Shown: positions 381 to 19,873, counted from the first letter of the stretch. The stretch: DNA of 32,000 nucleotides from Longivirga aurantiaca (GCF_042660085.1 NZ_JBHSTI010000008.1:270001-302000), one strand, 5' to 3'. Numbers and translations are program-made. Notes: generated by a model not told the origin, from the sequence alone.

Positions 381-1343
381 ATGTACGACGTGGATCCCGA
401 GGTCGCTGCCGGGCTCATCGCCATGTTCGGGCCGGAGCCCGCGGCTCCGGTGCCGGTTGATGATTGGGCCACGCGCCGGCACAACACCCACGCGATGTTC
501 TCGGAGCTGCGCACGAAGTACGCGCCAGCCGTCGACGTCGAGACGCAGGACGTCACGATGACGGTGGCCGAGGGCGCCTCGGTCGGCCTGCGAATCTACC
601 GTCCCCACACTCGCGACTCGGACGGCGTGCTGCTGTACCTGCACGGCGGAGGCATGATCATGTGCAACCTCGAGACCCACGACGCGATCTGCCGCGAGTA
701 CGCCGTACGCACAGGGATGTGCGTCGTCGCCGTCGACTACCGACTCGCTCCGGAGCACCCGTTCCCCGTTCCCGTCGACGACTGCATGGCGGCGCTTCGC
801 TGGGTCGCCGGCCAGCGCGATCAGGGATGGGCCCCTCATCGGATCGTCGTGGGCGGGGAGAGCGCCGGCGGTGGCCTGGCGGCAGCGGTGGCACTGCGCG
901 CGCGAGACGAGGGCGGTCCGGAGATCGCCGGCCTCCTTCTCGTGTACCCCATGCTCGACGACCGCACGTGCGAACGCGACGCCGGCCTGGATGCCGTCGC
1001 GACCTGGACGTACGACGACCACCTCACCGCGTGGCGTGCGTACGTCGGCACCGACGGTGCCGCGTCGGGCTACGCGGCGCCGCTGCGAGCGGAGACCGTC
1101 GTCGGCCTGCCGCCGACGTACCTCGAGGTCGGCGAGCTGGACATCTTCCGGGCGGAGATCACCGCGTTCGCCGGCCGCCTGCTCGAGTCCGGGGTCCGAC
1201 TGGAGTTCCACCTCCACCCGGCAGTGCCGCATGCGTTCGAGCTGTTCGCCCCCGCGGCCGCCGTCTCAGAGCGGGCGATGGCGGACCGCGTGCGCGCCAT
1301 TAAGTCGTTACAAAACAAAAAGCGTGCAGGACTAGACAAATAG
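381..1343 (+). CDS. alpha/beta-hydrolase fold-3 carboxylesterase/lipase (hormone-sensitive-lipase family)
   Basis: ORF track, 320 aa, with a GAGGTGAGGG purine run just upstream. Motifs: HGGG oxyanion (LHGGGMIMC), GESAGG nucleophile elbow, and catalytic His context VPHAF near the C-terminus. Confidence 0.85.
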   Translation: MYDVDPEVAAGLIAMFGPEPAAPVPVDDWATRRHNTHAMFSELRTKYAPAVDVETQDVTMTVAEGASVGLRIYRPHTRDSDGVLLYLHGGGMIMCNLETHDAICREYAVRTGMCVVAVDYRLAPEHPFPVPVDDCMAALRWVAGQRDQGWAPHRIVVGGESAGGGLAAAVALRARDEGGPEIAGLLLVYPMLDDRTCERDAGLDAVATWTYDDHLTAWRAYVGTDGAASGYAAPLRAETVVGLPPTYLEVGELDIFRAEITAFAGRLLESGVRLEFHLHPAVPHAFELFAPAAAVSERAMADRVRAIKSLQNKKRAGLDK

Positions 1344-1516: not shown

Positions 1517-1613
1517 TGTAAGAACGTCGCCTGTGCCACGGCACCGGCAGGCGACTCCCCCCAGGTATCGAGCTGTTCTCGTCTCGGCGGGACAGGCAAC
1601 CAGAAGGAGACCA

Positions 1614-2849
1614 GTGACCACGACGACCAGGAGCCCGCGACGCCGGGCCATGTATCTCGTTCCCGCGGCCGCCGCGATGCTGCTGACGGCCGCCTGCGGG
1701 AGCTCGACCGGCGGGGACGCGACTGCGACGTCCGCATCCGGGTCCGCATCCGGTTCGGCCGGCACGACGACCGAGCCGTACTGCGCGGAGGACGCGGCGA
1801 CCGCCCTGCCCGCCCTTCAGCCTGAGGGCATCGTCGGGCAGGGCCCGAACGGTGAGCCTGCGGCGTCGCCCGACGACGTGCAGATCAGCGACGAGGACGC
1901 GGCGACGATCAAGGCGGGCAAGAACGGCACCCCGTTCAAGGTCGCCCTCGTGTTCCAGTTCAGCGGTGACTGGCCCAACGGCCAGACCAAGGGGCTGACC
2001 GACGAGTTCAGCAAGTACGGCGTCGAGATCATCAGCAACACCGAGGCCAACTTCAAGGTCGACAAGCAGATCGCCAACATCGAGAACGCCATCCAGCTGC
2101 AGCCGGACGGCATCGTCTCGATCCCCGTCGACGACGTCGCCACCGCGCCCGCGTACAAGAAGATCTCGGAGGCCGGCATCAAGCTGGTCTTCATGGACAA
2201 CGCCGCGAAGGGCCTCACCGCTCCGGACGACTACGTGTCCGTGGTCTCGGCCGACTCGCAGGGCAACGGCCAGGTCGCCGCGAAGAAGCTCTCCTGCTAC
2301 ATCCCCGAGGGCGGCACCGTCGGCATCGTCGACTTCGGCATCACGTTCTTCGTCACGAACCAGCGCACCAAGGGCGCCCGTGACTGGTTCGCCGCGAACC
2401 GTCCCGACATCAAGCTCAAGGACGCCAACTTCACCGACCCGAACCAGGCCGGCGACGTCGCGGCGAACTTCCTCACGGCCAACCCCGACGTCAACGGCGT
2501 CTGGGCAGTGTGGGACGGCCCGGCGCAGGGTGTCATTGCTGCGCTGCGCGCCCAGGGCAAGAACCTCCCCGTCACCACGATCGACCTGGGCGACCAGGCC
2601 GCGACGGACCTCGCCAGCAGCGAGTACCTGAAGGGTGTCGGCGCCCAGCGTCCGTACAGCCAGGGCGTGGCCGAGGCTCGAGCGATGATGCTCGCGCTCA
2701 TCGGCAAGGACGTCCCGGCGTGGATCGGCGTCCCGGCGCTCCCGGTGATCCAGAACAGCCTCCGCCAGGGCTACGAGGACTCCTGGGCCAAGCCGCTGCC
2801 GGAGAAGCCCGAGGCAGCATGCAAGGCGAACGAGCCGAAGTGCGCGTGA
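1614..2849 (+). CDS. sugar-binding lipoprotein, PBP1/RbsB-like solute-binding protein (no cognate permease or ATPase in the window)
   Basis: Frame of ORF 1533..2849. The preferred start is GTG 1614, preceded by AAGGAGA (1604-1610). The N-terminus VTTTTRSPRRRAMYLVPAAAAMLLTAAC-GSS has a basic n-region and a lipobox. The body resembles periplasmic sugar-binding proteins. Alternative start: ATG 1650. Confidence 0.8.
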   Translation: MTTTTRSPRRRAMYLVPAAAAMLLTAACGSSTGGDATATSASGSASGSAGTTTEPYCAEDAATALPALQPEGIVGQGPNGEPAASPDDVQISDEDAATIKAGKNGTPFKVALVFQFSGDWPNGQTKGLTDEFSKYGVEIISNTEANFKVDKQIANIENAIQLQPDGIVSIPVDDVATAPAYKKISEAGIKLVFMDNAAKGLTAPDDYVSVVSADSQGNGQVAAKKLSCYIPEGGTVGIVDFGITFFVTNQRTKGARDWFAANRPDIKLKDANFTDPNQAGDVAANFLTANPDVNGVWAVWDGPAQGVIAALRAQGKNLPVTTIDLGDQAATDLASSEYLKGVGAQRPYSQGVAEARAMMLALIGKDVPAWIGVPALPVIQNSLRQGYEDSWAKPLPEKPEAACKANEPKCA

Positions 2850-2961: not shown

Positions 2962-3582
2962 TCAGGCTCCGTCCACTGCCGCGCGGAACGACCGGGCCCG
3001 TTCCTGGATCTCGTCGTACTGCTCGGTCTCCACCAGGCGGGCCGACGCCAGGTCGGATCCGGCGAAGAGCGCCACCGCCCCCGCGGCGAGGAAGCCCCCT
3101 GCGGTCTCAGGGGTCACGCCGCCCGAGGGCACCAGCCCGATATGGGGGAACGGTCCGCGCAGGTCCTTGATGTGGCCCGGGCCACCAGTCGCGGCGGGGA
3201 AGACCTTCACGAGCGCGGATCCCAGCTCATGCGCTGCCCACACCTCACTGGGTGTGTAGGCGCCGAGCATGAACGGAACCCCGCGGGCACGGCAGGCCTC
3301 GGCGATCCCGGGAAGGACGGCCGGTGTGACGACGAACTGGGCGCCGGCGTCGATCGCGTCGTGCGCCTGCGCTGCTGTCAGGACCGTGCCGGCGCCCACG
3401 ATCGCGTCGCCTCCCGCCCCTGCGGCGATGACGCCGAGCACGTCCGGGGTCGTGAAGGTGAACTCGACCAGGTGCACTCCGCCCGCGGCGAGGCTGTCGG
3501 CCAGGCGGCGCGGGTCGGGGACGCGGTCCGCGCGGATGACTGCCGCGATGCGGTCCGCGCGCAGGACATCGAGGGCATGCAT
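2962..3582 (-). CDS. eda: 2-dehydro-3-deoxyphosphogluconate / 4-hydroxy-2-oxoglutarate aldolase (paralog 1)
   Basis: ORF 2962..3606. The preferred start is ATG 3582, with AAGGGAG ending 5 nt upstream. Motifs: VEFTFTT (Glu), GAGTV, VKVFPA (Schiff-base Lys), PSGGV. GTG 3606 is an alternative start. Confidence 0.85.
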   Translation of the reverse strand: MHALDVLRADRIAAVIRADRVPDPRRLADSLAAGGVHLVEFTFTTPDVLGVIAAGAGGDAIVGAGTVLTAAQAHDAIDAGAQFVVTPAVLPGIAEACRARGVPFMLGAYTPSEVWAAHELGSALVKVFPAATGGPGHIKDLRGPFPHIGLVPSGGVTPETAGGFLAAGAVALFAGSDLASARLVETEQYDEIQERARSFRAAVDGA

Positions 3583-3608
3583 GCGTACTCCCTTGTATAT
3601 GGACACCG

Positions 3609-3628
3609 ACTTATCATAACGTCATGAT
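3609..3628. promoter_or_regulatory. conserved bidirectional promoter/operator core ACTTATCATAACGT, embedded in the near-palindrome ATCATAACGTCATGAT
   Basis: The 14-mer at 3609-3622 is identical to 22907-22920. ATCATAACGTCATGAT (3613-3628) pairs at 7 of 8 positions. It contains two overlapping TANNNT-type -10 hexamers: TATGAT on the minus strand (3613-3618) and TAACGT on the plus strand (3617-3622). Confidence 0.5.
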
Positions 3629-3676: not shown

Positions 3677-4402
3677 GTGACCCGACTTCGCGATCGAACC
3701 GTCCTGGTCACCGGGGCGACCGGTGGGATGGGCAGCGGCACGGTGCGCGCTCTCGCCCGGGAGGGGGCCCATGTCGGGGTGGCGGACATCGGCGTCGAGG
3801 CGGCGTCGCGGCTGGCAGCGGAGGTCGGCGGCACCCCGCTGCTCCTCGACGTCACGAGTCCGGCGAGCGTCACGGCCGCCGTCGAGGCGCTGGTGGCCGA
3901 GCGAGGCGGGATCGACGTCTTGGTGAACTTCGCCGGGATCGTCGACCCGCGCCGCATGGACGAGATCGACCCGGAGTCCTGGAGCCGCGTCTTCGACGTG
4001 AACGTCCGCGGTACGTGGCTGATGTGCAACGCCGTCCTCCCGCACATGCCTCGCGGCGGGGCCATCGTGAACATCGGCTCCCGCGCCGGGCTGGTGGGCG
4101 GCACCACGAGCGGAGCGAGCTACGCCGCCTCGAAGGCAGCGGTCATCTGCTTCACCAAGTCGATGGCGAAGTTCGCCGCCCCGATGGGCATCCGGGCCAA
4201 CGTGATCAACCCCGGGTGCATCGAGACCCCCATGCTCGATCACTTCGCGCCGGACGTCGTGGCCGCGATGCCCGGTCAGGCCGCTCTCGGCCGGCTCGGC
4301 ACACCGGCCGAGATCGCCGAGAGCGTCATCTTCCTCGCCACGGACGCCTCGTCGTTCATGACCGGTGCACAGCTCAACGTCAACGGCGGCAGCCACATGT
4401 AG
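3677..4402 (+). CDS. short-chain dehydrogenase/reductase (classical SDR)
   Basis: ORF 3632..4402. GTG 3677 is preferred because codons 3632-3676 have poor third-position GC. Motifs: TGATGGMG (TGxxxGxG), NFAG, YAASK (YxxxK), C-terminal NVNGG. Confidence 0.85.
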   Translation: MTRLRDRTVLVTGATGGMGSGTVRALAREGAHVGVADIGVEAASRLAAEVGGTPLLLDVTSPASVTAAVEALVAERGGIDVLVNFAGIVDPRRMDEIDPESWSRVFDVNVRGTWLMCNAVLPHMPRGGAIVNIGSRAGLVGGTTSGASYAASKAAVICFTKSMAKFAAPMGIRANVINPGCIETPMLDHFAPDVVAAMPGQAALGRLGTPAEIAESVIFLATDASSFMTGAQLNVNGGSHM

Positions 4403-4465: not shown

Positions 4466-5866
4466 GTGCTGGGAGCCGATGTGATCGTGCCCATCCCGCT
4501 CATCCCCGGGGTGCCCGTCCTCGCGGCCATGGGGGCGCTCTCGACCCTTCTGGTCAATCGGAACGTGAGCGTGTTCCATGACGGGCTGCGACCCCTCATG
4601 CCGTCGCTGCGCTCTGGTGAGATGACCCGGGACCAGGTCGCCAAGATCTCGTTCAGCCTCGCCCTCGCCTTCATCTGGGCCTTCGGCCTCCCCTACTCCG
4701 TGGGCTTCGTCATCCCGCTCATCTACCTGGTGTACATCGCGACCGACTACATCGGTGTGCGGCTGCCCGCGACCTATGACGTCAGGTGGTGGCAGAGCAG
4801 GACGAACCTCCTGGGCGTCATCGGGTCGCTGGTCCTGGGTGCCGCCTGGGGCGGTGGCGTCGCGGCCTTCCTGCACTACCTGGCCGTCGGGATGTCCAAC
4901 CTGCCTGTTCCGATGGCGGCAGGCACGGCGCTGTTCACCACCCCGGTGGCTCAGGCCTTCTTCCTGTTCCCCGTACTGACCGTGGTGTACCACTACGGCT
5001 TCAGGCCGGCGCTGGTGGCGTTCGTCGTGTCCACCCTCGCCTGGTTCTCGGCGAGCCAGTTCGGCTGGGCGCTGCCGTCCGTGTGGGCTTTCGGCGCAGC
5101 GCTTCTCGTGATGGCCGTGCTCCTCGTCCGGGAGGCGCGTCGCTCGGGGCCGGCAGCGGCCCAGGTGCCACCGGGCTGGCTCATCGAGGACGAATCCGCC
5201 GCGCCCGACTGGGCCTCGGCGGATTCCGACGACGAGGCCGAGGACCAGCTCTTCCGGGACAACGTGCGCCGCATCAAGGGCAACCTCCCGCTGATCACCC
5301 TGCTCGCGGGTCTCGGTGGGGCGGCCTACCACTGGGGCCTCGTGGCGATGGACCCGTTCTCGTCGAACCTGTACGCCGTAGGGCTCGCTCTCCCTGCCGC
5401 GCTGGTCATGCTCATGTGGGCCTTCGCCTTCATCCCCATGAAGTTCACGACCGCAGTGGTCACGGGGACCATGGCGACCGGCACGTTCCTCGAGCCTGTC
5501 GTCGCCCTCCTGATGCCCAACGTCTGGGCGGCTGCGATCGGCGTCGCACTGCTCCGCGTCGTCGAGGTCTTCCTGCTCCTCGCCGTCGTCGGCTGGATCG
5601 AGCGGTGGCCCAGCATCCGCGAGGTCGCCGACGTGATGCGTACGGCGATCTTCCAGATCATGGAGATCGGGTTCCTCGTGGGCGGCGCGCTGGCAGCCGC
5701 GGCGTGGGCGGGCACGTGGGGCGTGGGCGTCGTCGTCGCCGCGTGGTTCGTGAACATCAAGGCGAAGTCGCCCGTCATGCCCATGTCCCTCGGCGCGATC
5801 GCAGCCCTCGGCGTCGGCCTGGTGGTGAACGTGCTCGCCCTGCTGGGCCTGAACCTCACCCTCTGA
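4466..5866 (+). CDS. polytopic membrane protein, YhfT-like putative transporter
   Basis: ORF track, 466 aa, GTG start, with GAGAAGGAGG at 4451-4460. It has many hydrophobic stretches and a central acidic loop (EDESAAPDWASADSDDEAED). VSVFHDGLRPLMPSL and RRIKGNLPLI resemble my memory of E. coli YhfT. This needs HMM confirmation. Confidence 0.6.
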   Translation: MLGADVIVPIPLIPGVPVLAAMGALSTLLVNRNVSVFHDGLRPLMPSLRSGEMTRDQVAKISFSLALAFIWAFGLPYSVGFVIPLIYLVYIATDYIGVRLPATYDVRWWQSRTNLLGVIGSLVLGAAWGGGVAAFLHYLAVGMSNLPVPMAAGTALFTTPVAQAFFLFPVLTVVYHYGFRPALVAFVVSTLAWFSASQFGWALPSVWAFGAALLVMAVLLVREARRSGPAAAQVPPGWLIEDESAAPDWASADSDDEAEDQLFRDNVRRIKGNLPLITLLAGLGGAAYHWGLVAMDPFSSNLYAVGLALPAALVMLMWAFAFIPMKFTTAVVTGTMATGTFLEPVVALLMPNVWAAAIGVALLRVVEVFLLLAVVGWIERWPSIREVADVMRTAIFQIMEIGFLVGGALAAAAWAGTWGVGVVVAAWFVNIKAKSPVMPMSLGAIAALGVGLVVNVLALLGLNLTL

Positions 5867-5887: not shown

Positions 5888-5918
5888 GAGCCCGTCGTCC
5901 CCGTTGACGACGGGCCTC
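5888..5918. terminator. hairpin after the YhfT-like gene
   Basis: CCCGTCGTC (5891-5899), loop CCCGTT, GACGACGGG (5906-5914). The stem can extend by GAG/CCTC. A second small stem, GGCCT/AGGCC, lies at 5867-5886. Confidence 0.45.
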
Positions 5919-5934
5919 GCCGCGCCTACCATGG

Positions 5935-5967
5935 TGCAACGGGCGCAGACCCTATGCAACATACGCA
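5935..5967. promoter_or_regulatory. two direct TGC-N7-GCA boxes upstream of the GMC operon
   Basis: TGCAACGGGCGCA (5935-5947) and TGCAACATACGCA (5955-5967), with starts 20 bp apart. TATGCAACATACGCAA (5953-5968) matches 15647-15662 at 14 of 16 positions. Confidence 0.5.
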
Positions 5968-6002
5968 ATGCGCTCCAGCGCACACTCGTCAGGGAGCCTG
6001 TT

Positions 6003-7628
6003 ATGAGCGTGTCGCACGACCCGGTGGACGTCCTCATCGTCGGCGCGGGCGCCTCGGGCTCCACAGCCGCCAAGCACCTGGCCGAGCAGGGGCGGAGCGT
6101 CGTCGTTCTCGACCAGGGCCACTGGACGGACGTGGGCGACCTCCCCGGCGACAAGCCGGAGTACGAGCTGCTGTGGAACAACCACCGGTTCCACCCGGAC
6201 CCCAACATGCGCGACCGCCGCGAGGACTACCCGACGAACCTCGAGGACTCCGAGCAGCCCGTGTACATGTACAACGGCGCGGGCGGCAGCACCGTCTACT
6301 TCGCCGGGGTCTGGAGCCGGCCGCTCCCGTCCGACTTCCGCGTGCGCACTCTCGACGGCGTCGCCGACGACTGGCCCATCAGCTACGAGGACCTGATCCC
6401 CTTCTTCGCGGCGACCGACTACGACATGGGCGTCTCCGGGCTCGCGGGCAACACTGCCTATCCGCCGGGGGCGGAGCCGCCGTTGCCGATGCACCCGATC
6501 AACCAGACCGGACGCCGCATGGCGGAGGGGCTGAACAGTCTCGGCTGGCACTGGTGGCCCGGGTACTCGGCCATCCCGTCCCGGGCGCACAACCGCCAGG
6601 CCCAGTGTGTTCGTCTCGGGGTGTGCCGGACCGGTTGCGTCGCCGGCGCGAAGGGTTCCGCGGACATCACTCTTCTTCCCGATGCCCTGGCACACGGTGC
6701 GCGCATCGAGACAGGAGCACGTGTCGCACGCATCACGCTGGACGAGATGGGCCGCGCGAACGGCGCCGTCTATCTCCAGGACGGCACGGAGAAGTTCCAG
6801 GCGGCACGTGTGGTCATCGTCGCCGCCAACGGGATCGGTACGCCGCGCCTGCTGCTGATGAGCGAGTCGAACCGCTTTCCGCACGGTCTGGCCAACAGCT
6901 CGGACCTCGTAGGTCGGCGTCTCATGCTCCACCCGTTCGGTTCGGCGATAGGTATCTACGACGAGGACCTGGAGGACTGGCTCGGTCCGGCCGGCACGCA
7001 GATCGAGTGCATGGAGTTCTACGAGACCGACGTCACCCGCGGCTTCGTGCGCGGCAGCAAGTGGCATGTCATGGGCACGGGTGGACCGCTCGAGATGGCC
7101 ACCCGCTGGCATATCGGGGAAGGCGTCCGCGACGAGGACTTCTGGGGCGAGCAGTTCACGCGCAAGATGAAGCAGGCCGTCGGCCACTCCATCGACTGGA
7201 TCGTCCACGCCGAGGACCTGCCCGAAGAGCACAACCGGGTCACGCTCGATCCCACGCTCACCGACAGCGACGGGCTGCCGGCGCCGAAGATCACCTACAT
7301 GACGTCGGACAACACCCACCAGATCCTGGACTTCGGGCTGAACCGCGCGGTGGAGGCGCACTACGCCGCGGGGGCGACGAAGGCGTGGATCACCTTCCGG
7401 AACTTCTCCTCGGGACACAACCTCGGGACGACGAAGATGGGTGACGATCCGGAGACCTCGGTGGTGGACCGTTGGGGTCGGACCCATGACGTCCCGAACC
7501 TCTACGTCATCGACGGTTCGGTCTTCACCACGTCGACCGCCACCAATCCGACCTCCACGATCTGTGCGCTGGCCAAGCGGACGGCGACGTTCATCGCGAA
7601 CAACCGTGACCAGGTGGTGGCGTGGTGA
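6003..7628 (+). CDS. GMC-family FAD-dependent dehydrogenase, large subunit (copy 1)
   Basis: Frame of ORF 5904..7628. Start ATG 6003 follows AGGGAG (5991-5996) and gives 541 aa, the same length as the paralog at 19874. Motifs: DVLIVGAGASGS FAD fold, HWWPGY, and the C-terminal NPTSTICALAKR segment typical of GMC enzymes. Confidence 0.85.
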   Translation: MSVSHDPVDVLIVGAGASGSTAAKHLAEQGRSVVVLDQGHWTDVGDLPGDKPEYELLWNNHRFHPDPNMRDRREDYPTNLEDSEQPVYMYNGAGGSTVYFAGVWSRPLPSDFRVRTLDGVADDWPISYEDLIPFFAATDYDMGVSGLAGNTAYPPGAEPPLPMHPINQTGRRMAEGLNSLGWHWWPGYSAIPSRAHNRQAQCVRLGVCRTGCVAGAKGSADITLLPDALAHGARIETGARVARITLDEMGRANGAVYLQDGTEKFQAARVVIVAANGIGTPRLLLMSESNRFPHGLANSSDLVGRRLMLHPFGSAIGIYDEDLEDWLGPAGTQIECMEFYETDVTRGFVRGSKWHVMGTGGPLEMATRWHIGEGVRDEDFWGEQFTRKMKQAVGHSIDWIVHAEDLPEEHNRVTLDPTLTDSDGLPAPKITYMTSDNTHQILDFGLNRAVEAHYAAGATKAWITFRNFSSGHNLGTTKMGDDPETSVVDRWGRTHDVPNLYVIDGSVFTTSTATNPTSTICALAKRTATFIANNRDQVVAW

Positions 7629-8073
7629 GCGTGGATGTGTCCGTGCAGGGTTCGGTCCCGCTCACCGCGGAGCAGCGGGCCCGGTTGTCCGCGCTGGCCG
7701 ACGTCCTGATCCGCGGCGGTGCCGGTCTGCCCTCGGCCAGCGAGGCGGAGGTGCACTCGGTGTGGATCGACCGGGTGTTCGTGGCGCGCCCGGACATGGA
7801 GGTCGTGGTGCGCGGGGTGCTGGACGTGGCTGGGGATGCCGAGTCGGTCGTGGCCGGTCTGCGGGCCTCGGACGCGGAGCGGTTCTCGGCGTTCGCGTTC
7901 GCTGTCGCGGGGGCGTGGCTGATCAATCCGCGGGTGCGTCGTGAGCTGGGCTACCCGGGCCCGGTGCCGATGCGTCAGCCCGCCCTGCCCGACGAGGCCG
8001 ACGCCTATCTCGAGGACGGCATCCTCGACGTCGTCATCGCCCGAGGCCCCATCTACCGCCCCACCCCGGACGC
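7560..8073 (+). repeat. 514-bp direct repeat, copy A (partner 21431-21944)
   Basis: Base-by-base comparison found only two mismatches (7657 C/G, 7903 T/G), both synonymous. The repeat covers the last 22 codons of the GMC gene plus essentially the whole small-subunit gene. Confidence 0.9.
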
Positions 8074-8080
8074 ACAGTGA
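7622..8080 (+). CDS. small subunit of the flavoprotein dehydrogenase (gluconate 2-dehydrogenase subunit-3-like), copy 1
   Basis: ORF track, 152 aa. The GTG overlaps the GMC stop (7626-7628). LTAEQRARLSALADVLIRGGAGLPSASEAEV fits the pattern of the small-subunit family. It has no twin-arginine signal. A GTGA overlap joins it to the next gene at 8077-8080. Confidence 0.6.
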   Translation: MVSVDVSVQGSVPLTAEQRARLSALADVLIRGGAGLPSASEAEVHSVWIDRVFVARPDMEVVVRGVLDVAGDAESVVAGLRASDAERFSAFAFAVAGAWLINPRVRRELGYPGPVPMRQPALPDEADAYLEDGILDVVIARGPIYRPTPDAQ

Positions 8081-9171
8081 GCTCGGTCCCTGTCTCCGAT
8101 GTCCTCGCCTGGAGCAGCGCAGTTCTCGTCGAGGCTGGGCTCGCTCCCGTCGACGCGGGATGGGTGGCGGAGAGCCTCGTCTTCGCCGACCTGCGAGGGG
8201 TGAGCACACACGGTGTGATGCGGCTCCCGACCTACGTCGCTCGCATCCGAGCGGGCGGTATCGCCGCGCGGCATTCGATCACCGTCGAGGCTGACCTGGG
8301 AGCGCTGGTGATCCTTGACGGCGGCGCCGGTGCCGGCGCGAGCCTCGGAGTGCACTCCGCCGATCTCGCCGTGGAACGCGCCCGCACCTACGGCATCGGC
8401 GCCGTGATCACCAAGAACGCCAACCACTTCGGCGCCTGCGCGTTCTACACCAACAGGATCGCCGACGCCGGGCTGCTGGGCCTGGTCGCGTGCAACACGG
8501 AATCCGTGATGTGTGCGCCGTTCGGTGGCGCACCCGTGCTGGGCACCAACCCGCTGGCGCTCGCCGTGCCGATGCCCGCGTCGGAACGCCCCCAGCTCGA
8601 CATGGCCACCACCACGACGAGCCAGGGCCGGCTGCTGATCGCGGAGCAGGCCGGGGAGCCGATACCGGTGGGGTGGGCCGTCGACGCGGGGGGACAACCC
8701 ACGACCTCCGCGAGCGAAGGCCTCCGCGGTGCGCTCCTGCCGATGGGCGGGCCGAAGGGGTTCGGGCTCGCCTTCGCCGTGGACGCACTCCTCGCGCTGG
8801 CCGGCGCCAACGTGAGCACGAGGGTGTCCGCTCTGGGCGGCGATCCCTCCGAGGCCCAGAGGCTGGGGCACATCGCCATCGCCATCCGCGCGGACGGTGC
8901 GCAGCCGCTCGACGACTACCGCAGCGCCATGAGCGGGCTTGTCGGTTCCATCCACGCCAGCTCGGTCGGGCTGGACGTGCCAGCGGCGGTCGCGCCGGGG
9001 GAGCCCGAGGTGGAGCGCGAGCGCGCGGCCGACGGGCGCATCTCGCTCTCGCCGCATGTCGTCGCGGAGCTCGCCGAGCTCGCCGAGAGCGCGGGGATCG
9101 CCCTGCCGTCCGCGCTCGCCGCACTCACGCGACCGATCACCACTCGCGAATCTGGAGAGACGAGCACATGA
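8077..9171 (+). CDS. Ldh_2-family (malate/L-lactate dehydrogenase type 2) oxidoreductase
   Basis: ORF track, 364 aa. Motifs: ADLRGVSTHGVMRLPTYV, FGGAPVLGTNPLALAVP, DMATTTTSQGR, GGPKGFGLAF. The family includes ureidoglycolate dehydrogenase and 2,3-diketo-L-gulonate reductase. Confidence 0.85.
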   Translation: MSSVPVSDVLAWSSAVLVEAGLAPVDAGWVAESLVFADLRGVSTHGVMRLPTYVARIRAGGIAARHSITVEADLGALVILDGGAGAGASLGVHSADLAVERARTYGIGAVITKNANHFGACAFYTNRIADAGLLGLVACNTESVMCAPFGGAPVLGTNPLALAVPMPASERPQLDMATTTTSQGRLLIAEQAGEPIPVGWAVDAGGQPTTSASEGLRGALLPMGGPKGFGLAFAVDALLALAGANVSTRVSALGGDPSEAQRLGHIAIAIRADGAQPLDDYRSAMSGLVGSIHASSVGLDVPAAVAPGEPEVERERAADGRISLSPHVVAELAELAESAGIALPSALAALTRPITTRESGETST

Positions 9172-10256
9172 CCACGATCGCCTCCGTGCGCTCCGACTAC
9201 TACCTGGTCCCGCTGGACGTCGTTCTGAGCGACAGCACCCACGGCAGCATCCCGCACTTCGAGCTGGTGACCGTCCGGGTCACAGACAGCGACGGAGCGG
9301 AGGGGATCGGCTACACGTACGCCGTGAACTCGGGCGGGGCTGCCTTCAAGACCCTGATCGACCACTACCTGACACCCGTGGTCCTCGGCGCCGACGTCGA
9401 CGCGAGCGAGCGCGTCTGGCAGGACATGTGGTGGGCCGTCCACTACTCCGGACGTGGCGGTCACGCGACCTCGGCGATCTCGGCCGTGGACATCGCGATC
9501 TGGGACCTGCGCGCCAAACGCGCAGGCCAGCCGCTGTGGCGCTACTTCGGCGGCTTCGACCCGAAGGTGCCGGTGTACGCCGGGGGCATCGACCTGGACT
9601 TCTCGGTCGAGGAGCTGCTCGAGCAGGCCGACCGTTTCCAGGAGCTCGGGTTCCGAGCCATCAAGATGAAGGTCGGCCGAGCGAGCCTGCGGGAGGACGT
9701 CGAGAGGGTCCGCCGGATGCGCGAGCACCTCGGCGACGACTTCCCGCTCATGGTCGACGCCAACATGAAGTGGAGCGTCGACCAGGCCGTGCGTGCTGCC
9801 CAGGCCCTCGCCGAGTTCAACCTGCTGTGGATCGAGGAGCCGACCATCCCCGATGACGTCGCGGGCCATGTGCGGGTCGTGCGCGAGGGGCGCACCCCGG
9901 TCGCCACCGGCGAGAACATGCACACGCTGTACGAGTTCAGCAACCTCATCGTCGCGGGCGGGCTGACGTACCCGGAACCGGACGTCACCAACTGCGGCGG
10001 CATGACCGTGTTCCGCAAGATCGCGGCGGTGGCGGAGGCGCACAATCTCCCCGTGACGTCCCATGGTGTGCACGATCTGACGGTCCACCTGCTCGCGGCT
10101 GCTCCCAACCGGACCTTCATGGAGGCCCATGGCTTCTCGCTGGACCGCTACATCGCCCACCCCATGGCCGTCGTGGACGGGTTCACCATGGCGCCCGAGA
10201 GGCCCGGGCACGGCATCGAGCTCGACTGGTCGGCTCTGGAGCAGCACCGGTCGTGA
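9168..10256 (+). CDS. enolase-superfamily enzyme, mandelate-racemase subgroup (probable acid-sugar dehydratase)
   Basis: Frame of ORF 8490..10256. ATG 9168 forms an ATGA overlap with the upstream stop, and GGAGAGA lies upstream. Product is 362 aa. Motifs: KxK (IKMKVG), metal ligands MVDANM / WIEEP / ATGEN, His in VTSHG. Confidence 0.85.
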   Translation: MTTIASVRSDYYLVPLDVVLSDSTHGSIPHFELVTVRVTDSDGAEGIGYTYAVNSGGAAFKTLIDHYLTPVVLGADVDASERVWQDMWWAVHYSGRGGHATSAISAVDIAIWDLRAKRAGQPLWRYFGGFDPKVPVYAGGIDLDFSVEELLEQADRFQELGFRAIKMKVGRASLREDVERVRRMREHLGDDFPLMVDANMKWSVDQAVRAAQALAEFNLLWIEEPTIPDDVAGHVRVVREGRTPVATGENMHTLYEFSNLIVAGGLTYPEPDVTNCGGMTVFRKIAAVAEAHNLPVTSHGVHDLTVHLLAAAPNRTFMEAHGFSLDRYIAHPMAVVDGFTMAPERPGHGIELDWSALEQHRS

Positions 10257-10942
10257 CTACGGGAGCGATAAGACGCCGCCTCGTCCTCTGGGATGTCGAC
10301 GGCACGCTGGTGAGCAACGACGAGAGCGACGAGCGGCTGTTCGTGGCCACCACCGAGTCCGTCCTCGGCCCGTTGCCGCACATCGTGCACCCGTACCGCC
10401 ATGGCAAGACCGACCGGCAGCAGGTGATCGAGTACCTCAAGGCCAACGGAGGCTCCTCCGCGCAGGCTGACGAGGGCTCGAGGCTTCTTGTCGAGCACTC
10501 ACGGGTGCACTTCGCCGAGCCCGGAGAGCGTGTGACGCTGCCGGGGGTGCGAGCAACGCTCGAGGCGCTCGCTGCCGCAGGGCACGTCAACGCCATGCTG
10601 ACCGGGAACAGCGAGGTGCGCGCACGGCTCAAGCTGCGATCCGCCGGCTTGTCATCGGAGCATTTCGACTGGGCGTCCAGCTTCTTCGGCGGAGCCGTCG
10701 CCTCCCGCCTAGACCTGACGCGTGCTGCCTCGGAGTACGCCGCTGGCCGCGGCCTGGTGCCGGTGGTGATCGGGGACACCGCCGCGGACTCGCACGCGGC
10801 CGAGATCGCGGGGATCGAGTTCATCGGCGTGGCCACGGGCGTGTACGACGCCTCGGAGCTACGAGCGACCCCGAACGTCCTGGTCGTCGACGACCTGGAC
10901 GTGGGTGGCCGTTCCGTCCTCGACCTTCTCGCGACCCGTTAG
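10253..10942 (+). CDS. HAD-superfamily hydrolase (phosphatase-like)
   Basis: ORF track, 229 aa. GTGA overlap with the enolase stop. DxDGT motif (LWDVDGTLV) and a late GDT..D motif (VIGDTAADSHAA). Confidence 0.7.
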   Translation: MTTGAIRRRLVLWDVDGTLVSNDESDERLFVATTESVLGPLPHIVHPYRHGKTDRQQVIEYLKANGGSSAQADEGSRLLVEHSRVHFAEPGERVTLPGVRATLEALAAAGHVNAMLTGNSEVRARLKLRSAGLSSEHFDWASSFFGGAVASRLDLTRAASEYAAGRGLVPVVIGDTAADSHAAEIAGIEFIGVATGVYDASELRATPNVLVVDDLDVGGRSVLDLLATR

Positions 10943-11337
10943 GAGCCGACGGCTGCGGCCTTCTCGGCCAGCCTGGACCCGAACTTGTCCAGGTCGACGA
11001 TGAACCGCTCATGAGTACCGGCGACGACGTCGTCGATACCGTCGTTCGCTGTGATCTCGAAGACGACACGGCGCCGATCGACCTCGGTGACGGTTGCCGT
11101 GCAGGTCACGGTCTGCCCCAGCAGTGTCGCGGCGGTGTGCGCGATGTCGACGCGCGTGCCGACGCTCGACTGGGTCGGCGGTAGGTGAGGTGCCAGCGCC
11201 TCGATCGCCGTGAGCTCCAGCAGCAGGACGAGATCAGGCGTGGCGAAGATGCGGTAGTCGCCTCGCTCCGTGCAGTCCTCGAGCTCGATCCGCTTGACCA
11301 GCGTGCCGCTGGTGCCCACGGTGATGTCGTCGATCAT
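10939..11337 (-). CDS. hotdog-fold thioesterase-like protein (FlK-like)
   Basis: ORF track, 132 aa, with GAGAGGA RBS upstream. The size and the pattern FATPDLVLLLE...SVGTRVDIAHTAATLLGQTV...RRVVFEI fit small hotdog thioesterases. Confidence 0.55.
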   Translation of the reverse strand: MIDDITVGTSGTLVKRIELEDCTERGDYRIFATPDLVLLLELTAIEALAPHLPPTQSSVGTRVDIAHTAATLLGQTVTCTATVTEVDRRRVVFEITANDGIDDVVAGTHERFIVDLDKFGSRLAEKAAAVGS

Positions 11338-11355
11338 GGTGTCCTCTCGGGTTGT

Positions 11356-12267
11356 CTAGAGCACTGCCAAAGGGTTCACCGGAGAGCCGGTTCCCCCGGG
11401 GATGCGCAGGGGGGCCATGGCGAACAGGAACTCCCAGCGGTCGAGGTCCGCGCAGGCGACCGCGAGGTCCTCGAGGGACATGTTGTCGATGAGCGGCATG
11501 CCCATCGCATTGAGCGCCAGCGCATGGATGGGCGAGACGATGCCCGCGACCGGGCTCGGTCGGGCGTCGCTGTCGCCGTCCGAGCCGAGCAGGGCGGACC
11601 CGTCGCGGCTGAGCACCTGCATGCAGTCAGGCCCGAGACCCGCACTGAAGTTCGAGGGGTCCCAGGCGCCGAGGGCGTCCTTCCTCGCACGAGCGCCCGT
11701 GCGCACGAGGACGGCGTCCCCGGGACGCAGAGACACGCCCTGCTCAGCGAGCACCGATTCGAGCTCGTCGGCTCCGATGGCCGTGCCGGGATCCAGCCAC
11801 GGCAGTCCGCGGCTGCGCGGGACGTCCACCAGGACACCGCGGGTCACTACCCCGTGTGCCATGTGGGCGACGGTTCCGACGTCGCCACCACGATCGCCGA
11901 CGTGCGTCTCGGAGTCGTAGCCGTTGTAGAGACGTCCGCGGAACACGCAGTGGCACAGGGCGTCGAGGTGCGTCACGGACTTCCCGTGGAAGTCCATGCC
12001 CACGTAGTCGGTGTTGACGCTCGGCTCGGCGTCCCCCGTGGCCGCGTATCCGGTCATGCGGTGCTCGACGGGTCGAGCGTTGTCGGGGCCGGGATCGCGA
12101 TCCAGGTCATGGCTCAGGCTGATCGAGCGGCCCACCCGGACGAGCGAAGAGGCCTCGACGACCGTGCGGTCCGAGATGTGATGGAGAGTCCCGCGCTGAT
12201 CGTCGTGACCCCAGCGACCCCAGGTGCTGACCCGATCGAAGAGCGCGTCGAAGTCCGCGGACTCCAT
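11356..12267 (-). CDS. cyclase-family protein (kynurenine-formamidase-like metal hydrolase fold)
   Basis: Frame of ORF 11356..12651. ATG 12267 lies 2 nt after the upstream stop. Product is 303 aa. FHGKSVTHLDALCH resembles the HxGTHxDxPxH motif of the putative-cyclase family. Confidence 0.65.
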   Translation of the reverse strand: MESADFDALFDRVSTWGRWGHDDQRGTLHHISDRTVVEASSLVRVGRSISLSHDLDRDPGPDNARPVEHRMTGYAATGDAEPSVNTDYVGMDFHGKSVTHLDALCHCVFRGRLYNGYDSETHVGDRGGDVGTVAHMAHGVVTRGVLVDVPRSRGLPWLDPGTAIGADELESVLAEQGVSLRPGDAVLVRTGARARKDALGAWDPSNFSAGLGPDCMQVLSRDGSALLGSDGDSDARPSPVAGIVSPIHALALNAMGMPLIDNMSLEDLAVACADLDRWEFLFAMAPLRIPGGTGSPVNPLAVL

Positions 12268-12269
12268 GG

Positions 12270-12698
12270 TCACGGGTTCCTGTCGATCTCGAACATCACG
12301 AGCTCCGCCTCGCCCTCGAGCACCACGAGTCCCTCGCCCTTGGAGACCGTGGTGGTGACGAATACCCGGCCGCGCTCCTCGTTCTTGTCGGTGACGACGC
12401 ACTCCACGGTGATGCGGTCCCCGATGAGCACAGGTCCTCGGAAGCGCATGGTCTGCGACACATACGCGCTGCCGACGCCCAGCAGCTGGGCCAACGTCGC
12501 ACCGATATAGCCGCCGCACTGCATGCCGTAGGCGACCCGCCCTCCGAAGCGTGTCGAGGCAGCGAACACCTCGTCCAGGTGCAGCGGACCTCGGTCGCCG
12601 ATGATGCCGGCGTACATGACGACGTCGGCCTCCGTGACCGTGCGCGTCCACTCCTCACGGTCGCCGACCTGGACCTGGTCGATGGTCAGGTACTTCAC
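12270..12698 (-). CDS. MaoC-like (R)-specific enoyl-CoA hydratase/dehydratase
   Basis: Frame of ORF 12270..12755. GTG 12698 forms a GTGA overlap with the ligase stop. Motifs: ADVVMYAGIIGDRGPLHLDEVFA, a hydratase-2-like motif, and a single hotdog domain. Confidence 0.8.
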   Translation of the reverse strand: MKYLTIDQVQVGDREEWTRTVTEADVVMYAGIIGDRGPLHLDEVFAASTRFGGRVAYGMQCGGYIGATLAQLLGVGSAYVSQTMRFRGPVLIGDRITVECVVTDKNEERGRVFVTTTVSKGEGLVVLEGEAELVMFEIDRNP

Positions 12699-14338
12699 GT
12701 CTGCGCTCCTGTGATGAGTTGCCGCAGGGACACCCCGGCGGCATGACGGTCCCACGTGTCCGGCGTGACGCCCTCGTTGCGCAGGGCGACCTTCTGCGGC
12801 TTCCCGTTAGGGGTCCTGGGCAGCTGATCGAGCACGCGGACGTAGCGAGGCACCATGAAGTGCGGCAGTCGTTGCGCGAGGTCGGTGATGAGAGCGCCCG
12901 GATCGAGCGGGGCGCCGGGCGCGGGGATCAGGCACAGCAGCACGTCGTCGTCGCCCGCGAACTCCGAAGGAACGCCGACGGCGGCGCACTCGGCCACGCC
13001 CGGATGCTCGAGCGCGGCACGCTCGATCTCGTACGACGAGATGTTCTCCGCTCGGCGGCGGATGCGCTCCTTGACCCGGTCCACGAAGTACACGTAGCCA
13101 TCCTCGGCGATGTAGGCGAGGTCGCCCGTGTGGAACCACAGGTTTCGCCATGCGGCCAGAGTGGCCTCGGGCATGCGCAGGTAGCCCTGCATCATGGTGA
13201 AGGGCCGTCGAGGGCGCAGGACCATCTCGCCCGTGCTGCCCAGCGGGACCTCCTCGTCGGTGTCCGGGTCGACGATCCGCAGCTCGAAGTGCTCAGCACG
13301 CAGGCGCCCGCACGATCCGATCCGCAGTGGTTCGTCGAACGGCTGCCAGATCGGGATCGTCACCTCGGTCATCCCCCACGTCTCGATCCCGCGGATGCCG
13401 AAGCGCTCCTGGAAATCCAGGGCGATGCCGGCGGGGAACGGGGAGGCCATGATGCGGGTGATGGGGTTCTCGGCATCGTCAGCTCGCACCGGCTGCTGGT
13501 GCAGCATCTCGACGAGGGGGCCGTGCAGGAGCGCGATGGTGCAGTCGTTCTCGCGCGCCCGCGACAGGAACTCGTCGACCGCGAAGCGCGTGTCGAGGAC
13601 GACGCGCCCGGCGGCCATCATCGAGCCCATGATCCCGATGAACTTCCCTGCGACGTGGAACAGCGGGATGAAGCAGTAGAAGGCGTCGTCCGAGGTCATC
13701 CGCGCGCCTTCGACGCCGAGGCGCGAGAACAGCCGCACCTGACCGTGAGGCATCATCACGCCCTTGGCCGGTCCCGTCGTCCCGGACGTGTAGATGATGG
13801 ACGCGATGTCGTGGGGTCCGACGAGCCGCTCGGGCGCGGTGTCGGACGCGCCCAGGACGTCATGGAACGCCAGGGTCCTGGTGCCGGGGACCGTCACCGT
13901 CACCGGTCCGTCGCCGGCGGGGTAGACGACGACCGTGTCCAGATGGGTGAGCGAGTCGCTGATCTCGACGACCCGGGGGAGCAGCGCCTCCTCGACGAAC
14001 ATGACGCGCGCCTGGGAGTTCTGCAGCACATGCTCGAGGCTGTGGCCGCGGTAGCCGGTGTTGATCGCGACCTCGACCGCGCCTGCGAGGCTCGTGCCCA
14101 GCCAGGTGGCGATGGACTCCGTGGAGTTGTCGGCCATGATCACGACGCACTCGCCGTGCGCGACGCCCAGCGCGACGAGCCCGTTGCCGACGGCGCACGC
14201 GGCGCGGTAGGCCTCGGCGTAGGTCACCGGTCGGCCGCCGACCTGGCGGAAGAACTCGCGCTCTCCGTCCTCGCCGGCGCGGGCCCGGAGCAGATCCGGA
14301 AGAAGCGCGTCGAGCATGACGTCCACGGTGTGCGGCAC
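12695..14338 (-). CDS. acyl-CoA synthetase / AMP-dependent ligase (ANL superfamily, CaiC-like)
   Basis: ORF track, 547 aa. AMP-binding motif IIYTSGTTGPAKGV, plus GMTE, YFVDRVKERIRR and PRTPNGK. The start may instead be GTG 14326, which has GAAGGG 9 nt upstream. Confidence 0.85.
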   Translation of the reverse strand: MPHTVDVMLDALLPDLLRARAGEDGEREFFRQVGGRPVTYAEAYRAACAVGNGLVALGVAHGECVVIMADNSTESIATWLGTSLAGAVEVAINTGYRGHSLEHVLQNSQARVMFVEEALLPRVVEISDSLTHLDTVVVYPAGDGPVTVTVPGTRTLAFHDVLGASDTAPERLVGPHDIASIIYTSGTTGPAKGVMMPHGQVRLFSRLGVEGARMTSDDAFYCFIPLFHVAGKFIGIMGSMMAAGRVVLDTRFAVDEFLSRARENDCTIALLHGPLVEMLHQQPVRADDAENPITRIMASPFPAGIALDFQERFGIRGIETWGMTEVTIPIWQPFDEPLRIGSCGRLRAEHFELRIVDPDTDEEVPLGSTGEMVLRPRRPFTMMQGYLRMPEATLAAWRNLWFHTGDLAYIAEDGYVYFVDRVKERIRRRAENISSYEIERAALEHPGVAECAAVGVPSEFAGDDDVLLCLIPAPGAPLDPGALITDLAQRLPHFMVPRYVRVLDQLPRTPNGKPQKVALRNEGVTPDTWDRHAAGVSLRQLITGAQT

Positions 14339-14341
14339 CCT

Positions 14342-15322
14342 TCAGATGTTGACGGCGGACATGTCGCTGTAGCGGTCGCCGACGACGGCATCCGGCGGGA
14401 CGAGATCGCCCAGCCGAGCCAGGTGCTCGTCCGTGAGCTGCAGCGACGCCGCGGCGACGTTGGACTCGAGGTTACGGCGGTGCTTCGTCCCCGGGATGGG
14501 TACGACGTCGTCGCCCTGTGCGAGCACCCACGCCAGCGCCAGCTGCGCGAGCGTGCAGCCCAGATCGTCGGCGATCTCGCGGGAGGCCTCCACGAGGGCG
14601 AGGTTGCGCTGCAGCGCATCGCCCTGGAAGCGCGGCGACGTGCGCCGCCAGTCGTCGGGCGCCAGGTCGTCGGCGTGGCTGATCGCACCCGTGAGCAGCC
14701 CTCGGCCCAGCGGGCCGTAGGCGACGAACCCGACGCCCAGCTCACGGCACACCGGGAGGATCTCCTGCTCCACGTCGCGGCTCTGGAGGGAGTACTCGCT
14801 CTGGATCGCCGCAACCGGGTGCACGGCATGGGCCCTGCGCAAGGTGGCGCCCGAGACCTCCGACAGCCCGATGTAGCGCACCTTGCCCGCAGCCACCAGG
14901 TCGGCCATCGCCCCGACCGTCTCCTCGATGGGAGTGTCCCGGTCCAGCCGGTGCTGCCAGTAGATGTCGATGCGGTCGGTGCCGAGGCGCTGGAGGGACA
15001 GGTCGCAGGAACGTCGGACATAGTCCGGGCGTCCGTTGACGCCGAGGTTCGTCCCGTCCGAGGCGCGCACCATGCCGAACTTGGTGGAGTAGAGGACCCG
15101 GTCCCGCTGTCCGGCGAGCGCATGACCGATCAGGGCCTCGTTGGCGAACGGGCCGTAGACGTCGGCGGTGTCGAAGAGCGTGACGCCGAGCTCCACGGCT
15201 CGCAGCAGCGTGGCGCGCGACTCCGCGTCGTCGAAGTCGGTGCCGTACGTGCCGGACATGGTCATGCAGCCCAGACCGAGGGACGACACCTCGAGCTCGG
15301 CGCCGAGGCGACGGGTGCGCAC
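14342..15322 (-). CDS. aldo-keto reductase
   Basis: Frame of ORF 14342..15700. GTG 15322 lies 2 nt after the upstream stop. Product is 326 aa. Motifs: LGAELEVSSLGLGCM, FDTADVYG, KFG, and IGLSE, typical of AKR11/13-like enzymes. Confidence 0.85.
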   Translation of the reverse strand: MRTRRLGAELEVSSLGLGCMTMSGTYGTDFDDAESRATLLRAVELGVTLFDTADVYGPFANEALIGHALAGQRDRVLYSTKFGMVRASDGTNLGVNGRPDYVRRSCDLSLQRLGTDRIDIYWQHRLDRDTPIEETVGAMADLVAAGKVRYIGLSEVSGATLRRAHAVHPVAAIQSEYSLQSRDVEQEILPVCRELGVGFVAYGPLGRGLLTGAISHADDLAPDDWRRTSPRFQGDALQRNLALVEASREIADDLGCTLAQLALAWVLAQGDDVVPIPGTKHRRNLESNVAAASLQLTDEHLARLGDLVPPDAVVGDRYSDMSAVNI

Positions 15323-15324
15323 GG

Positions 15325-15633
15325 CTACTGCCCGACCGGGAAGACGGTCTCGACCCGGCGGACGGAGATGCTCAGGACGAAGGCCTTGGGCTCGTCGCCG
15401 ATCACCGCGGCCCGCCTCTCCGACGCCCGGTAGCGGGCCTCCTGCTCCTCGGCGGTGCCCTCGCCGACGAACTCGCGCACCCACAGGAAGGTGGAGGTCG
15501 CACGGTCGGCCCACGCACCGCGCACGGGCAGCCCGAACTCCTCGTGGAGGGGCACGATCTTGTCGTGGAAGAGCGTCAGCCAGGCGTCCATCGTGCCTGG
15601 GACGATCTCGTACGTTCGATGCTCGACGGTCAC
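15325..15633 (-). CDS. NIPSNAP-family small alpha/beta-barrel protein
   Basis: ORF track, 102 aa, GTG start with GGAGAGG RBS. The pattern YEIVPGTMDAWLTLFHDKIVPLHEEFGLPVRGAW...FLWVREF fits NIPSNAP domains. Confidence 0.6.
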   Translation of the reverse strand: MTVEHRTYEIVPGTMDAWLTLFHDKIVPLHEEFGLPVRGAWADRATSTFLWVREFVGEGTAEEQEARYRASERRAAVIGDEPKAFVLSISVRRVETVFPVGQ

Positions 15634-15648
15634 CGGTATCCTCTCCTA

Positions 15649-15681
15649 TGCGACATACGCACATTGATTGCATATGTCGCT
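15649..15681. promoter_or_regulatory. inverted pair of TGC-N7-GCA boxes in the divergent region between the NIPSNAP operon and kdgK
   Basis: TGCGACATACGCA (15649-15661) and TGCATATGTCGCT (15669-15681), with starts 20 bp apart. The arms GCGACATACGCA and TGCATATGTCGC are reverse complements with one mismatch and a 7-bp spacer. Confidence 0.55.
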
Positions 15682-15746
15682 GAGTGAGGCTAACGTCCAT
15701 CGGAAAGGCAGGTCAAGGTGACCAGCCCCGACGCGCGAAGGCCGAC

Positions 15747-18051: not shown

Positions 18052-18064
18052 TGATGAGTCGCCG

Positions 18065-19846: not shown

Positions 19847-19873
19847 CCAGCGCACCAGGGTCGGGAGGATCTC

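Follow-up and report, generated by a model that had tools for sequence, protein, structure and literature searches.

The window analysed here is a 32,000-nucleotide stretch of the Longivirga aurantiaca genome (GCF_042660085.1, NZ_JBHSTI010000008.1:270001-302000), which corresponds to G000:C8:270001-302000 in our numbering and belongs to an assembly of 3,665,155 bp. Positions are counted from the first letter of the window, except for those preceded by C8, which follow the contig. The window carries a predicted sugar-acid island of the yhf/php type, in which the 14-mer ACTTATCATAACGT occurs twice on the plus strand, at 3609-3622 and 22907-22920. We consider it likely that this 14-mer forms the common core of a combined promoter and operator module, that the module is the operator of the HutC-type GntR regulator encoded in the same island, and that it joins the surrounding genes into one regulon. 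The genes of the island, as assigned from Pfam and NCBIfam, are as follows.

381-1343, plus strand, esterase
1533-2849, plus strand, periplasmic solute-binding protein
2962-3582, minus strand, eda1, KDPG/KHG aldolase, proposed regulon member (Pfam, NCBIfam)
3677-4402, plus strand, SDR, proposed regulon member (Pfam)
4466-5866, plus strand, YhfT-family membrane protein, proposed regulon member (Pfam)
5904-8080, plus strand, GMC dehydrogenase and its small subunit
8077-9171, plus strand, Ldh_2
10253-10942, plus strand, HAD hydrolase
10939-15700, minus strand, CoA-ligase operon
15684-18051, plus strand, pfkB-IclR-eda2, with the IclR-type regulator at 16664-17437
18141-21948, plus strand, etfB-etfA-GMC2-small subunit
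21955-22902, minus strand, php, phosphotriesterase (PTE) family, proposed regulon member (Pfam, NCBIfam)
22957-23901, plus strand, weakly shikimate-dehydrogenase-like gene (sdhL), proposed regulon member (weak NCBIfam shikimate-dehydrogenase matches; start taken from orthologues)
23888-24679, minus strand, GntR/HutC regulator, candidate binder (Pfam winged helix-turn-helix and UTRA domains)
24780-29948, plus strand, DUF2620/YhfU, PRD protein, YhfW-like, YhfX-like, HPr and Enzyme I

The two identical copies had been pointed out in a sequence-only reading of the window, which also placed both of them between divergently oriented genes; the sequence and a genome search bear out the former statement, and the Pfam assignments the latter. 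No third copy was found in the window when up to two mismatches were allowed, 100 dinucleotide-preserving shuffles of the window gave zero matches, and the whole 3,665,155-bp genome contains exactly two copies at no more than one mismatch. The 14-mer is thus not a common genome-wide repeat, and the many copies expected of a dispersed element similar to repetitive extragenic palindromes or miniature inverted-repeat transposable elements were not observed (two copies in 3.67 Mb at one mismatch or fewer). Since the 14-mer is A+T-rich and common to two short spacers of a window with 70% G+C, its recurrence is far beyond chance, whereas the absence of any similarity between the two spacers outside the 14-mer rules out a duplicated segment. 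The smaller elements described in the sequence-only reading were likewise found in place, namely the near-palindrome ATCATAACGTCATGAT at 3613-3628 with pairing at seven of eight positions, the related piece TCATGACGT at 24701-24709, GTTATGA at 1440-1446, and the two hexamers, minus-strand TATGAT at 3618-3613 and 22916-22911 and plus-strand TAACGT at 3617-3622 and 22915-22920. Its view of the 14-mer as the regulatory element holds insofar as the 14-mer is the core of a shared module; the functional unit, though, appears to be an array of 8-bp units. The four places that it listed are real, but the sites number six, those at 18040-18055 and G000:C8:304765-304780 having been missed.

The predicted operator consists of two to three contiguous 8-bp units, as in ATCATAAC GTCATGAT. 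Over 31 sites, unit positions 2, 4, 5 and 7 are near-invariant (T, A, T and A, respectively), which gives the unit consensus R-T-C-A-T-R-A-Y, the more general skeleton R-T-N-A-T-N-A-Y and an array consensus of ATCATAAC followed by GTCATGAY, where each unit is a pseudo-palindrome resembling GT-N4-AC. A 16-bp matrix was built from seven distant orthologous sites, with no sequence of the present genome, and scanned over the entire assembly. The sites of the island and their matrix scores are listed below.

Site A, 1432-1455, ATCAACAT GTTATGAC ATCGTGAT, upstream of the solute-binding-protein gene, 19-21 bits
Site B, 3613-3628, ATCATAAC GTCATGAT with a weak third unit GTCGTGCG extending to 3636, divergent eda1/SDR-yhfT gap, 29.5 bits, the top match of the genome
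Site C, 18040-18055, GTACTGAT GTAATGAT, eda2/etfB junction, 17.1 bits
Site D, 22911-22934, ATCATAAC GTAGTGAC AACATGAT, divergent php/sdhL gap, 21.3 bits at 22911 and 14.0 bits at 22922
Site E (weak), 24700-24715, palindromic unit GTCATGAC (24700-24707) followed by the decayed GTCCTGTC, gntR/yhfU gap, below 14 bits
Sixth site, G000:C8:304765-304780, GTCGTAAC ATCATTAT, 2.8 kb past the end of the window

The site in the gntR/yhfU gap, also named in the sequence-only reading, stands as one good unit, GTCATGAC, which is a perfect GT-N4-AC palindrome; the remainder of the array is degenerate in this genome. Site C and the eda2 stop codon overlap, and a candidate etfB promoter, TTGACT-18-TAATCT, follows 10 nt downstream of the site. 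The sixth site is flanked by a divergent pair of aminotransferase-III and YhfS-like genes on one side and an operon encoding a SIS-domain protein and an ABC transporter on the other; its position shows that the predicted regulon extends beyond the window.

The motif is concentrated at this locus. The six best matrix matches of the genome all fall in the window, at 3613 (both strands), 22911 and 1432/1440. After overlapping matches were merged, 12 distinct sites of at least 14 bits remained in 3.67 Mb, five of them (1432, 3613, 18040, 22911 and C8:304765, the last next to the yhfS-like gene) within the 35 kb of C8:270001-305000, and all five lie in promoter-bearing gaps. A binomial P of about 3.5e-8 was computed for five of 11 sites; with the 12 sites found the value is about 5e-8, which is of the same order. 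At a threshold of 17 bits, four of the five genomic sites belong to the 35-kb locus. The sole strong match elsewhere, C8:683497, was set aside as a probable false positive, being located at the start/stop overlap of two coding frames. Among the controls, the reversed matrix produced no sites of at least 17 bits and four of at least 14 bits, and 40 column-permuted matrices gave a mean of 0.075 locus sites with a maximum of one.

Within the genus, the locus was present in only two to three of the 28-41 genomes searched, too few for footprinting, and contigs were therefore scanned with an alignment of GntR orthologues instead, yielding 80 loci from species-representative genomes. The loci L006-L020, whose GntR proteins are 55-93% identical to the query, come from metagenome-assembled genomes labelled Nanopelagicales and from Blastococcus, Nocardioides, Microbispora, Sphaerisporangium, Dactylosporangium and Arthrobacter. 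The gene order yhfX-yhfW-PRD-yhfU / gntR / sdhL / php is kept in most of them, L017-L019 being rearranged. In 11 loci with GntR identities of 58-93%, including those of Nocardioides, Blastococcus, Microbispora, Sphaerisporangium and Arthrobacter, the unit array is retained at the orthologous php/sdhL gap while the rest of the gap varies. Arrays orthologous to site D were found in L006-L016 and L020, with the following examples.

Window: ATCATAAC GTAGTGAC AACATGAT
L011: ATCATAAC ATCATAAC AAGATGAC
L014: ATCATAAC GTCATAAC AAGATGAC
L013: ATCATAAC ATTATGAC AAGATGAT
L010: ATCATAAC ATGATGAC
L015 and L016: ATCATAAT GTCATCAC
L020: ATCATAAT GTCATGAT

The other sites of the island recur as well. Site C and the site at C8:304765 have counterparts at corresponding positions in Blastococcus and Nocardioides loci, e.g., GTCGTAAC ATCATTAC in L010, L011 and L013 and ATCATGAC GTCATCAC in L014; eda2/etfB gap sites are present in L011, L013 and L014, and the sixth site is kept in L010, L011 and L013. 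The orthologous gntR/yhfU gaps contain clearer arrays than that of the window, such as GTGATGAC AGGATGAT and ATCATGAC ATCATCAC. A 23-nt block that encloses site B, GACTTATCATAACGTCATGATGT, is fully identical in the sister species G005, where the flanks have diverged and identity over the whole eda1/SDR spacer region is 75%. The motif is conserved at orthologous gaps in at least six other genera. Compared with the cross-genus consensus, site B of the window (ATCATAAC GTCATGAT) is a better fit than site D. The four letters ACTT at the left end of the 14-mer are kept within the clade (L007-L009 and G005) but not in other genera, where the element begins with ATCAT; an additional "unit 0" that would account for them was rejected, as the preceding 8-mers misfit the unit in every locus. 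It should be noted that L018 and L019 both belong to Arthrobacter sp. KN11-1C (NZ_CP197467.1, about 4.03-4.07 Mb), where two paralogous GntR genes (55% and 57% identity) are less than about 14 kb apart and several arrays of three to four units, e.g., ATAATCAC ATCATCAT GTAATGAT ATGATGGC, are located between them.

The regulator encoded at 23888-24679 combines an N-terminal GntR winged helix-turn-helix domain (PF00392, 2e-17) with a C-terminal UTRA domain (PF07702, 1.6e-27), and its closest solved structures in PDB are DasR and YvoA/NagR (E about 1e-25). It reaches no NCBIfam equivalog cut-off, including those of DasR/NagR, and thus represents an uncharacterised orthologous group, of which the element described here is the predicted operator-promoter core. 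No IclR gene is present within 10 kb in L015-L020, and L017 also lacks the PRD gene; these loci still carry three to five sites. The gntR gene is the only regulator gene common to all of these loci and the one constant companion of the motif. The association extends to distant relatives. For 63 GntR homologues with 36-46% identity from Chloroflexota, Bacillota, Streptomyces, Saccharopolyspora and others, the highest score that the matrix reached within 250 bp upstream of each regulator gene had a median of 8.7 bits, as compared with a median of 1.1 and a maximum of 4.3 bits for 300 column-permuted matrices in the same regions. In L021-L085, which include members of Chloroflexota, Bacillota and Streptomyces, two to four abutting 8-bp units (nnnATnAC) were located 10-200 bp upstream of the homologue's own gene, for example, GTAATGAC AGGATGAC AAGATGAC, GTCATAAC AAGATTAC AGGATAAC and GTAATTAC AGGATGAC AACATAAC. 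An operator built of abutting units appears to be common to this HutC subfamily. The motif thus co-occurs with the regulator gene across genomes, both at sites adjoining the orthologues in L006-L020 and through its enrichment upstream of distant homologues. As it follows gntR into loci devoid of IclR or PRD genes and into other phyla, the sequence-only reading's proposal of the adjacent HutC-type GntR as the candidate binder is supported by comparative evidence.

The convergent gntR and sdhL genes share 14 bp at their 3' ends (23888-23901); the overlap is 8 bp in closer relatives, and in distant ones the two genes are approximately 40-90 bp apart.

Both 14-mers contain the core ATCATAACGT, in which two candidate -10 hexamers on opposite strands, TATGAT and TAACGT, have 2 bp in common. 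The candidate promoter elements at the two divergent gaps are as follows.

22891-22920, plus strand, candidate sdhL promoter, TTGACC (22891-22896), 18-nt spacer, TAACGT (22915-22920)
22911-22939, minus strand, candidate php promoter, TCGTCA-17-TATGAT (promoter scan)
3613-3618, minus strand, candidate eda1 -10 element TATGAT, predicting a leader of about 25-30 nt that includes AAGGGAG
3600-3628, plus strand, candidate SDR-yhfT promoter, TGGACA-17-CATGAT (promoter scan), with TAACGT at 3617-3622 as an alternative -10

All 11 orthologous gaps retain the pattern TTGACY-N17/18-TAAYRT. Its -35 element lies inside php codons in L006-L014 and is intergenic in L015, L016 and L020. In the window, TTGACC falls within php codons 3-4, spelled GGT CAA, as it also is in L006-L014 except for L010 with AGT CAA, and the coding -35 is kept in at least seven lineages. 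In the genes of the window, CAA accounts for 6% of glutamine codons, GGT for 15% of glycine codons and AGT for 2% of serine codons; the spelling of a conserved -35 in rare codons points to selection on the nucleotide sequence and not only on the protein, so that this part of the php coding sequence appears to be under nucleotide-level selection. On the opposite strand, the php start codon follows TATGAT by 7-8 nt in L006-L014 (8 nt in the window, ATG 22902), suggesting that the php mRNA is probably leaderless. At the first gap, the eda1 TATGAT, ribosome-binding site and ATG, as well as the TGGACA and CATGAT of the SDR-yhfT promoter, are conserved in G005. A further -35 candidate for the TAACGT of this gap, TTGTAT at 3593-3598, is not conserved in G005 and was set aside as the principal assignment. 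Each of the -10 hexamers proposed in the sequence-only reading has a conserved partner element in orthologues. Given the overlapping hexamers and the usual 7-nt distance to the start site, the divergent transcripts are predicted to begin about 23 bp apart, and the unit array spans the -10 and start-site regions of both directions under all of these promoter assignments.

Translation starts were assigned with the help of the relatives. The eda1 gene starts at ATG 3582, preceded by the ribosome-binding site AAGGGAG, and php starts at ATG 22902. For SDR, the most likely start is GTG 3677, since G005 has an ATG with the ribosome-binding site GAGGAG at the same place. Orthologue comparison places the sdhL start at GTG 22957/22960 behind GGAG, and this plus-strand gene of the second site is therefore not leaderless. 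A leaderless start at ATG 22930 was rejected, because in L008 and L009 its reading frame differs from that of the gene and because all orthologues have a GTG or ATG led by a Shine-Dalgarno sequence just before the conserved RLYFVG; ATG 22930 is instead part of the third operator unit, AACATGAT, and the conserved Shine-Dalgarno-led GTG is located about 27-30 nt downstream.

A second, unrelated class of motifs is present in the window, comprising TGCAC-N3-GTGCA palindromes and the inverted repeat GCGACATA...TATGTCGC, at 257-298, 1491-1519, 15640-15680 and 18097-18129. With up to two mismatches, the TGCAC-N3-GTGCA pattern has 40 matches as compared with 17 expected, and the regions upstream of the binding-protein and etfB genes contain both motif classes. 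This second class is plausibly the operator of the IclR regulator (16664-17437). As for the minus-strand CoA-ligase operon, the long open frame at 14342-15700 probably comprises two genes, 15325-15633 and 14342-15322, both on the minus strand; an aldo-keto reductase domain begins at residue 141, and a separate frame of about 100 amino acids with high G+C at third codon positions is located upstream.

Most HutC regulators act as repressors and dissociate from DNA when a pathway metabolite binds the UTRA domain. By analogy, the local GntR protein would bind the unit arrays as a repressor and leave them once an intermediate of the pathway occupied its UTRA domain. At the two 14-mer sites, the array would cover both -10 hexamers, minus-strand TATGAT and plus-strand TAACGT or CATGAT, so that a single bound protein could shut both directions. 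Site C might instead serve as a roadblock that stops transcripts reading through from eda2, or work in a different way. With six sites in about 35 kb, the predicted regulon would unite a split yhf/php-type sugar-acid island that includes the genes for the solute-binding protein, eda1, the SDR-yhfT-GMC dehydrogenase genes, etfBA-GMC2, php, the shikimate-dehydrogenase-like gene, gntR itself, the yhfU-PRD-yhfW-yhfX-ptsHI operon, and the aminotransferase-yhfS and SIS-ABC genes. The cross-genus footprint, the locus specificity and the conserved promoter elements all argue for the shared bidirectional promoter and operator module, serving one regulon, that the sequence-only reading had suggested.

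Several observations weigh against this interpretation. The site adjoining the regulator gene is weak in this genome, with one good unit and a score below 14 bits, and this also favours a different protein as the owner of the conserved array, whether the IclR-type regulator (16664-17437), the stand-alone PRD protein, both of which are encoded in the same island, or a regulator encoded elsewhere. We regard such an assignment as unlikely. Three to five sites persist in loci L015-L020, where an IclR gene is lacking within 10 kb and, in L017, the PRD gene too; in other phyla, distant GntR homologues have similar arrays upstream of their own genes amid unrelated neighbours; the IclR protein has a separate palindromic motif class at its disposal (TGCAC-N3-GTGCA, with the inverted repeat at 15640-15680); and, according to Pfam, a DNA-binding domain is lacking in PRD proteins of this size. 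The unit also departs from what is expected of the family. Its fit to the canonical HutC core GTMTAKAC is limited to the spacing of R-T-N-A-T-N-A-Y, because the central dinucleotide is AT as opposed to TA and positions 1 and 8 are often A or T, and a core spacing of 8 bp is too tight for two canonical dimers side by side. Site C, being upstream of the predicted -35, is a poor fit to simple occlusion, and the left-hand ACTT of the 14-mer is outside the cross-genus motif.

The units are moreover A+T-rich and similar to -10 elements, and sequence alone cannot fully separate a promoter from an operator here. The good match of both strands to TANNNT and the conservation of the -35 and of the distance to the start codon would also be expected if the block were only a promoter, with a -10/discriminator shared through a housekeeping or alternative sigma factor, regulation exerted elsewhere and no repressor on the block. 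This explanation seems to us quite improbable, as conservation covers 16-24 bp with a period of 8 bp, well past a -10 hexamer, and units occur where no -10 is expected, e.g., at 18040-18055, upstream of a -35 and overlapping a stop codon. Furthermore, the motif is confined to one island rather than distributed genome-wide, and it tracks the regulator gene across phyla. That the two 14-mers are identical by chance, or as the remains of a duplication, a gene conversion event or a dispersed repeat, and play no part in regulation is hardly credible. The shuffles and the genome search gave no indication of it, the two gaps are unlike each other beyond the 14-mer, and the motif occupies orthologous positions in other genera; as far as sequence evidence allows, the conservation and specificity tests refute it. 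An operator of the local HutC-type GntR merged with a two-way promoter thus remains the preferred explanation.

Repression of divergent promoters by a local HutC protein is a textbook principle of ordinary bacterial gene control. The present analysis adds a predicted regulon map of six sites and about 30 genes for the actinobacterial version of the uncharacterised yhf/php cluster, in which genes scattered over approximately 35 kb (Eda, SDR-YhfT, ETF-GMC dehydrogenase, php, YhfU/W/X-PtsHI and YhfS-like) are grouped, and names a candidate regulator, the ligand of which would identify the pathway's substrate. The locus is in addition a clean natural example of a predicted repressor site merged with a two-way promoter, one of whose -35 elements is held in coding sequence by rare codons. 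More tentatively, it is possible, although doubtful, that this HutC group and a wider subfamily in Actinomycetota, Chloroflexota and Bacillota read two to four abutting 8-bp units (nnnATnAC, period 8 bp) instead of one palindrome per dimer, and that the actinobacterial array, merged with both -10 elements and the -35 in php codons, is a master switch of the yhf/php pathway. If so, head-to-tail or higher-order binding would be implied, which is unusual for the family, and the effector of the switch would name the substrate of this long-orphan pathway.

Among known systems, the closest are the GntR/HutC repressors DasR, NagR/YvoA, HutC, TreR and PhnF, whose operators follow Ny-GT-M-TA-K-AC-Ny. 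The regulator described here resembles them in joining winged helix-turn-helix and UTRA domains and in being a local, probably self-regulated putative repressor of a catabolic island, and its predicted sites are located in divergent gaps over core promoter elements; the spacing of their units resembles GT-N4-AC, exactly so in GTCATGAC at 24700 and as R-T-N-A-T-N-A-Y in general. It differs in that the centre of the unit is AT instead of TA and the units are contiguous, with an 8-bp period and two to four in a row, forming direct repeats in distant homologues. The dre operators of DasR/NagR have the 16-bp consensus A(G/C)TGGTCTAGACCA(C/G)T. This consensus (TGGTCTAGACCA) is absent from ATCATAACGTCATGAT and similar sites of the island, which speaks against placing them in a DasR/NagR dre regulon. 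A comparative survey of the GntR family gives GTMTAKAC as the HutC consensus, with 4 nt between GT and AC in most sites, and reports that many sites are accompanied by additional, weaker half-site boxes at a distance of 7-12 nt from the centre (PMC4494728), a range into which the 8-bp spacing of the further units falls. The direct-repeat exceptions of the same survey, FarR (TGTATTAWTT), NagQ (TGGTATT) and NanR (TGGTATAW) (PMC4494728), are similar to the present sites in using repeated short units rather than a single palindrome, but their unit sequence and period differ, whereas the units here abut without a spacer and are pseudo-palindromic. The supplements of the survey (PMC4494728) contain no entry for php or yhf genes, and a literature search on the yhf cluster returned nothing on its regulation.

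Bacterial bidirectional promoters commonly show one of three start spacings, about 10, 18 or 23 bp (PMC12825309). The spacing of about 23 bp predicted here agrees with the promoters with overlapping -10 elements described by Warman, Grainger and co-workers, and the predicted position of a local repressor site on the shared core is reminiscent of acrA/acrR; in contrast to those promoters, the plus-strand -10 of the first site may be CATGAT, 6 bp further on. With the E. coli cluster yhfS-yhfT-yhfU-php-yhfW-yhfX-yhfY-yhfZ, the island shares the YhfT, DUF2620/YhfU, PTE/php, YhfW-like, YhfX-like, PRD and YhfS-like families. The E. coli cluster is paired with YhfZ and is not known to have a HutC-type regulator. 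The island described here is split over about 35 kb and additionally includes Eda, ETF, GMC dehydrogenases and ptsHI.

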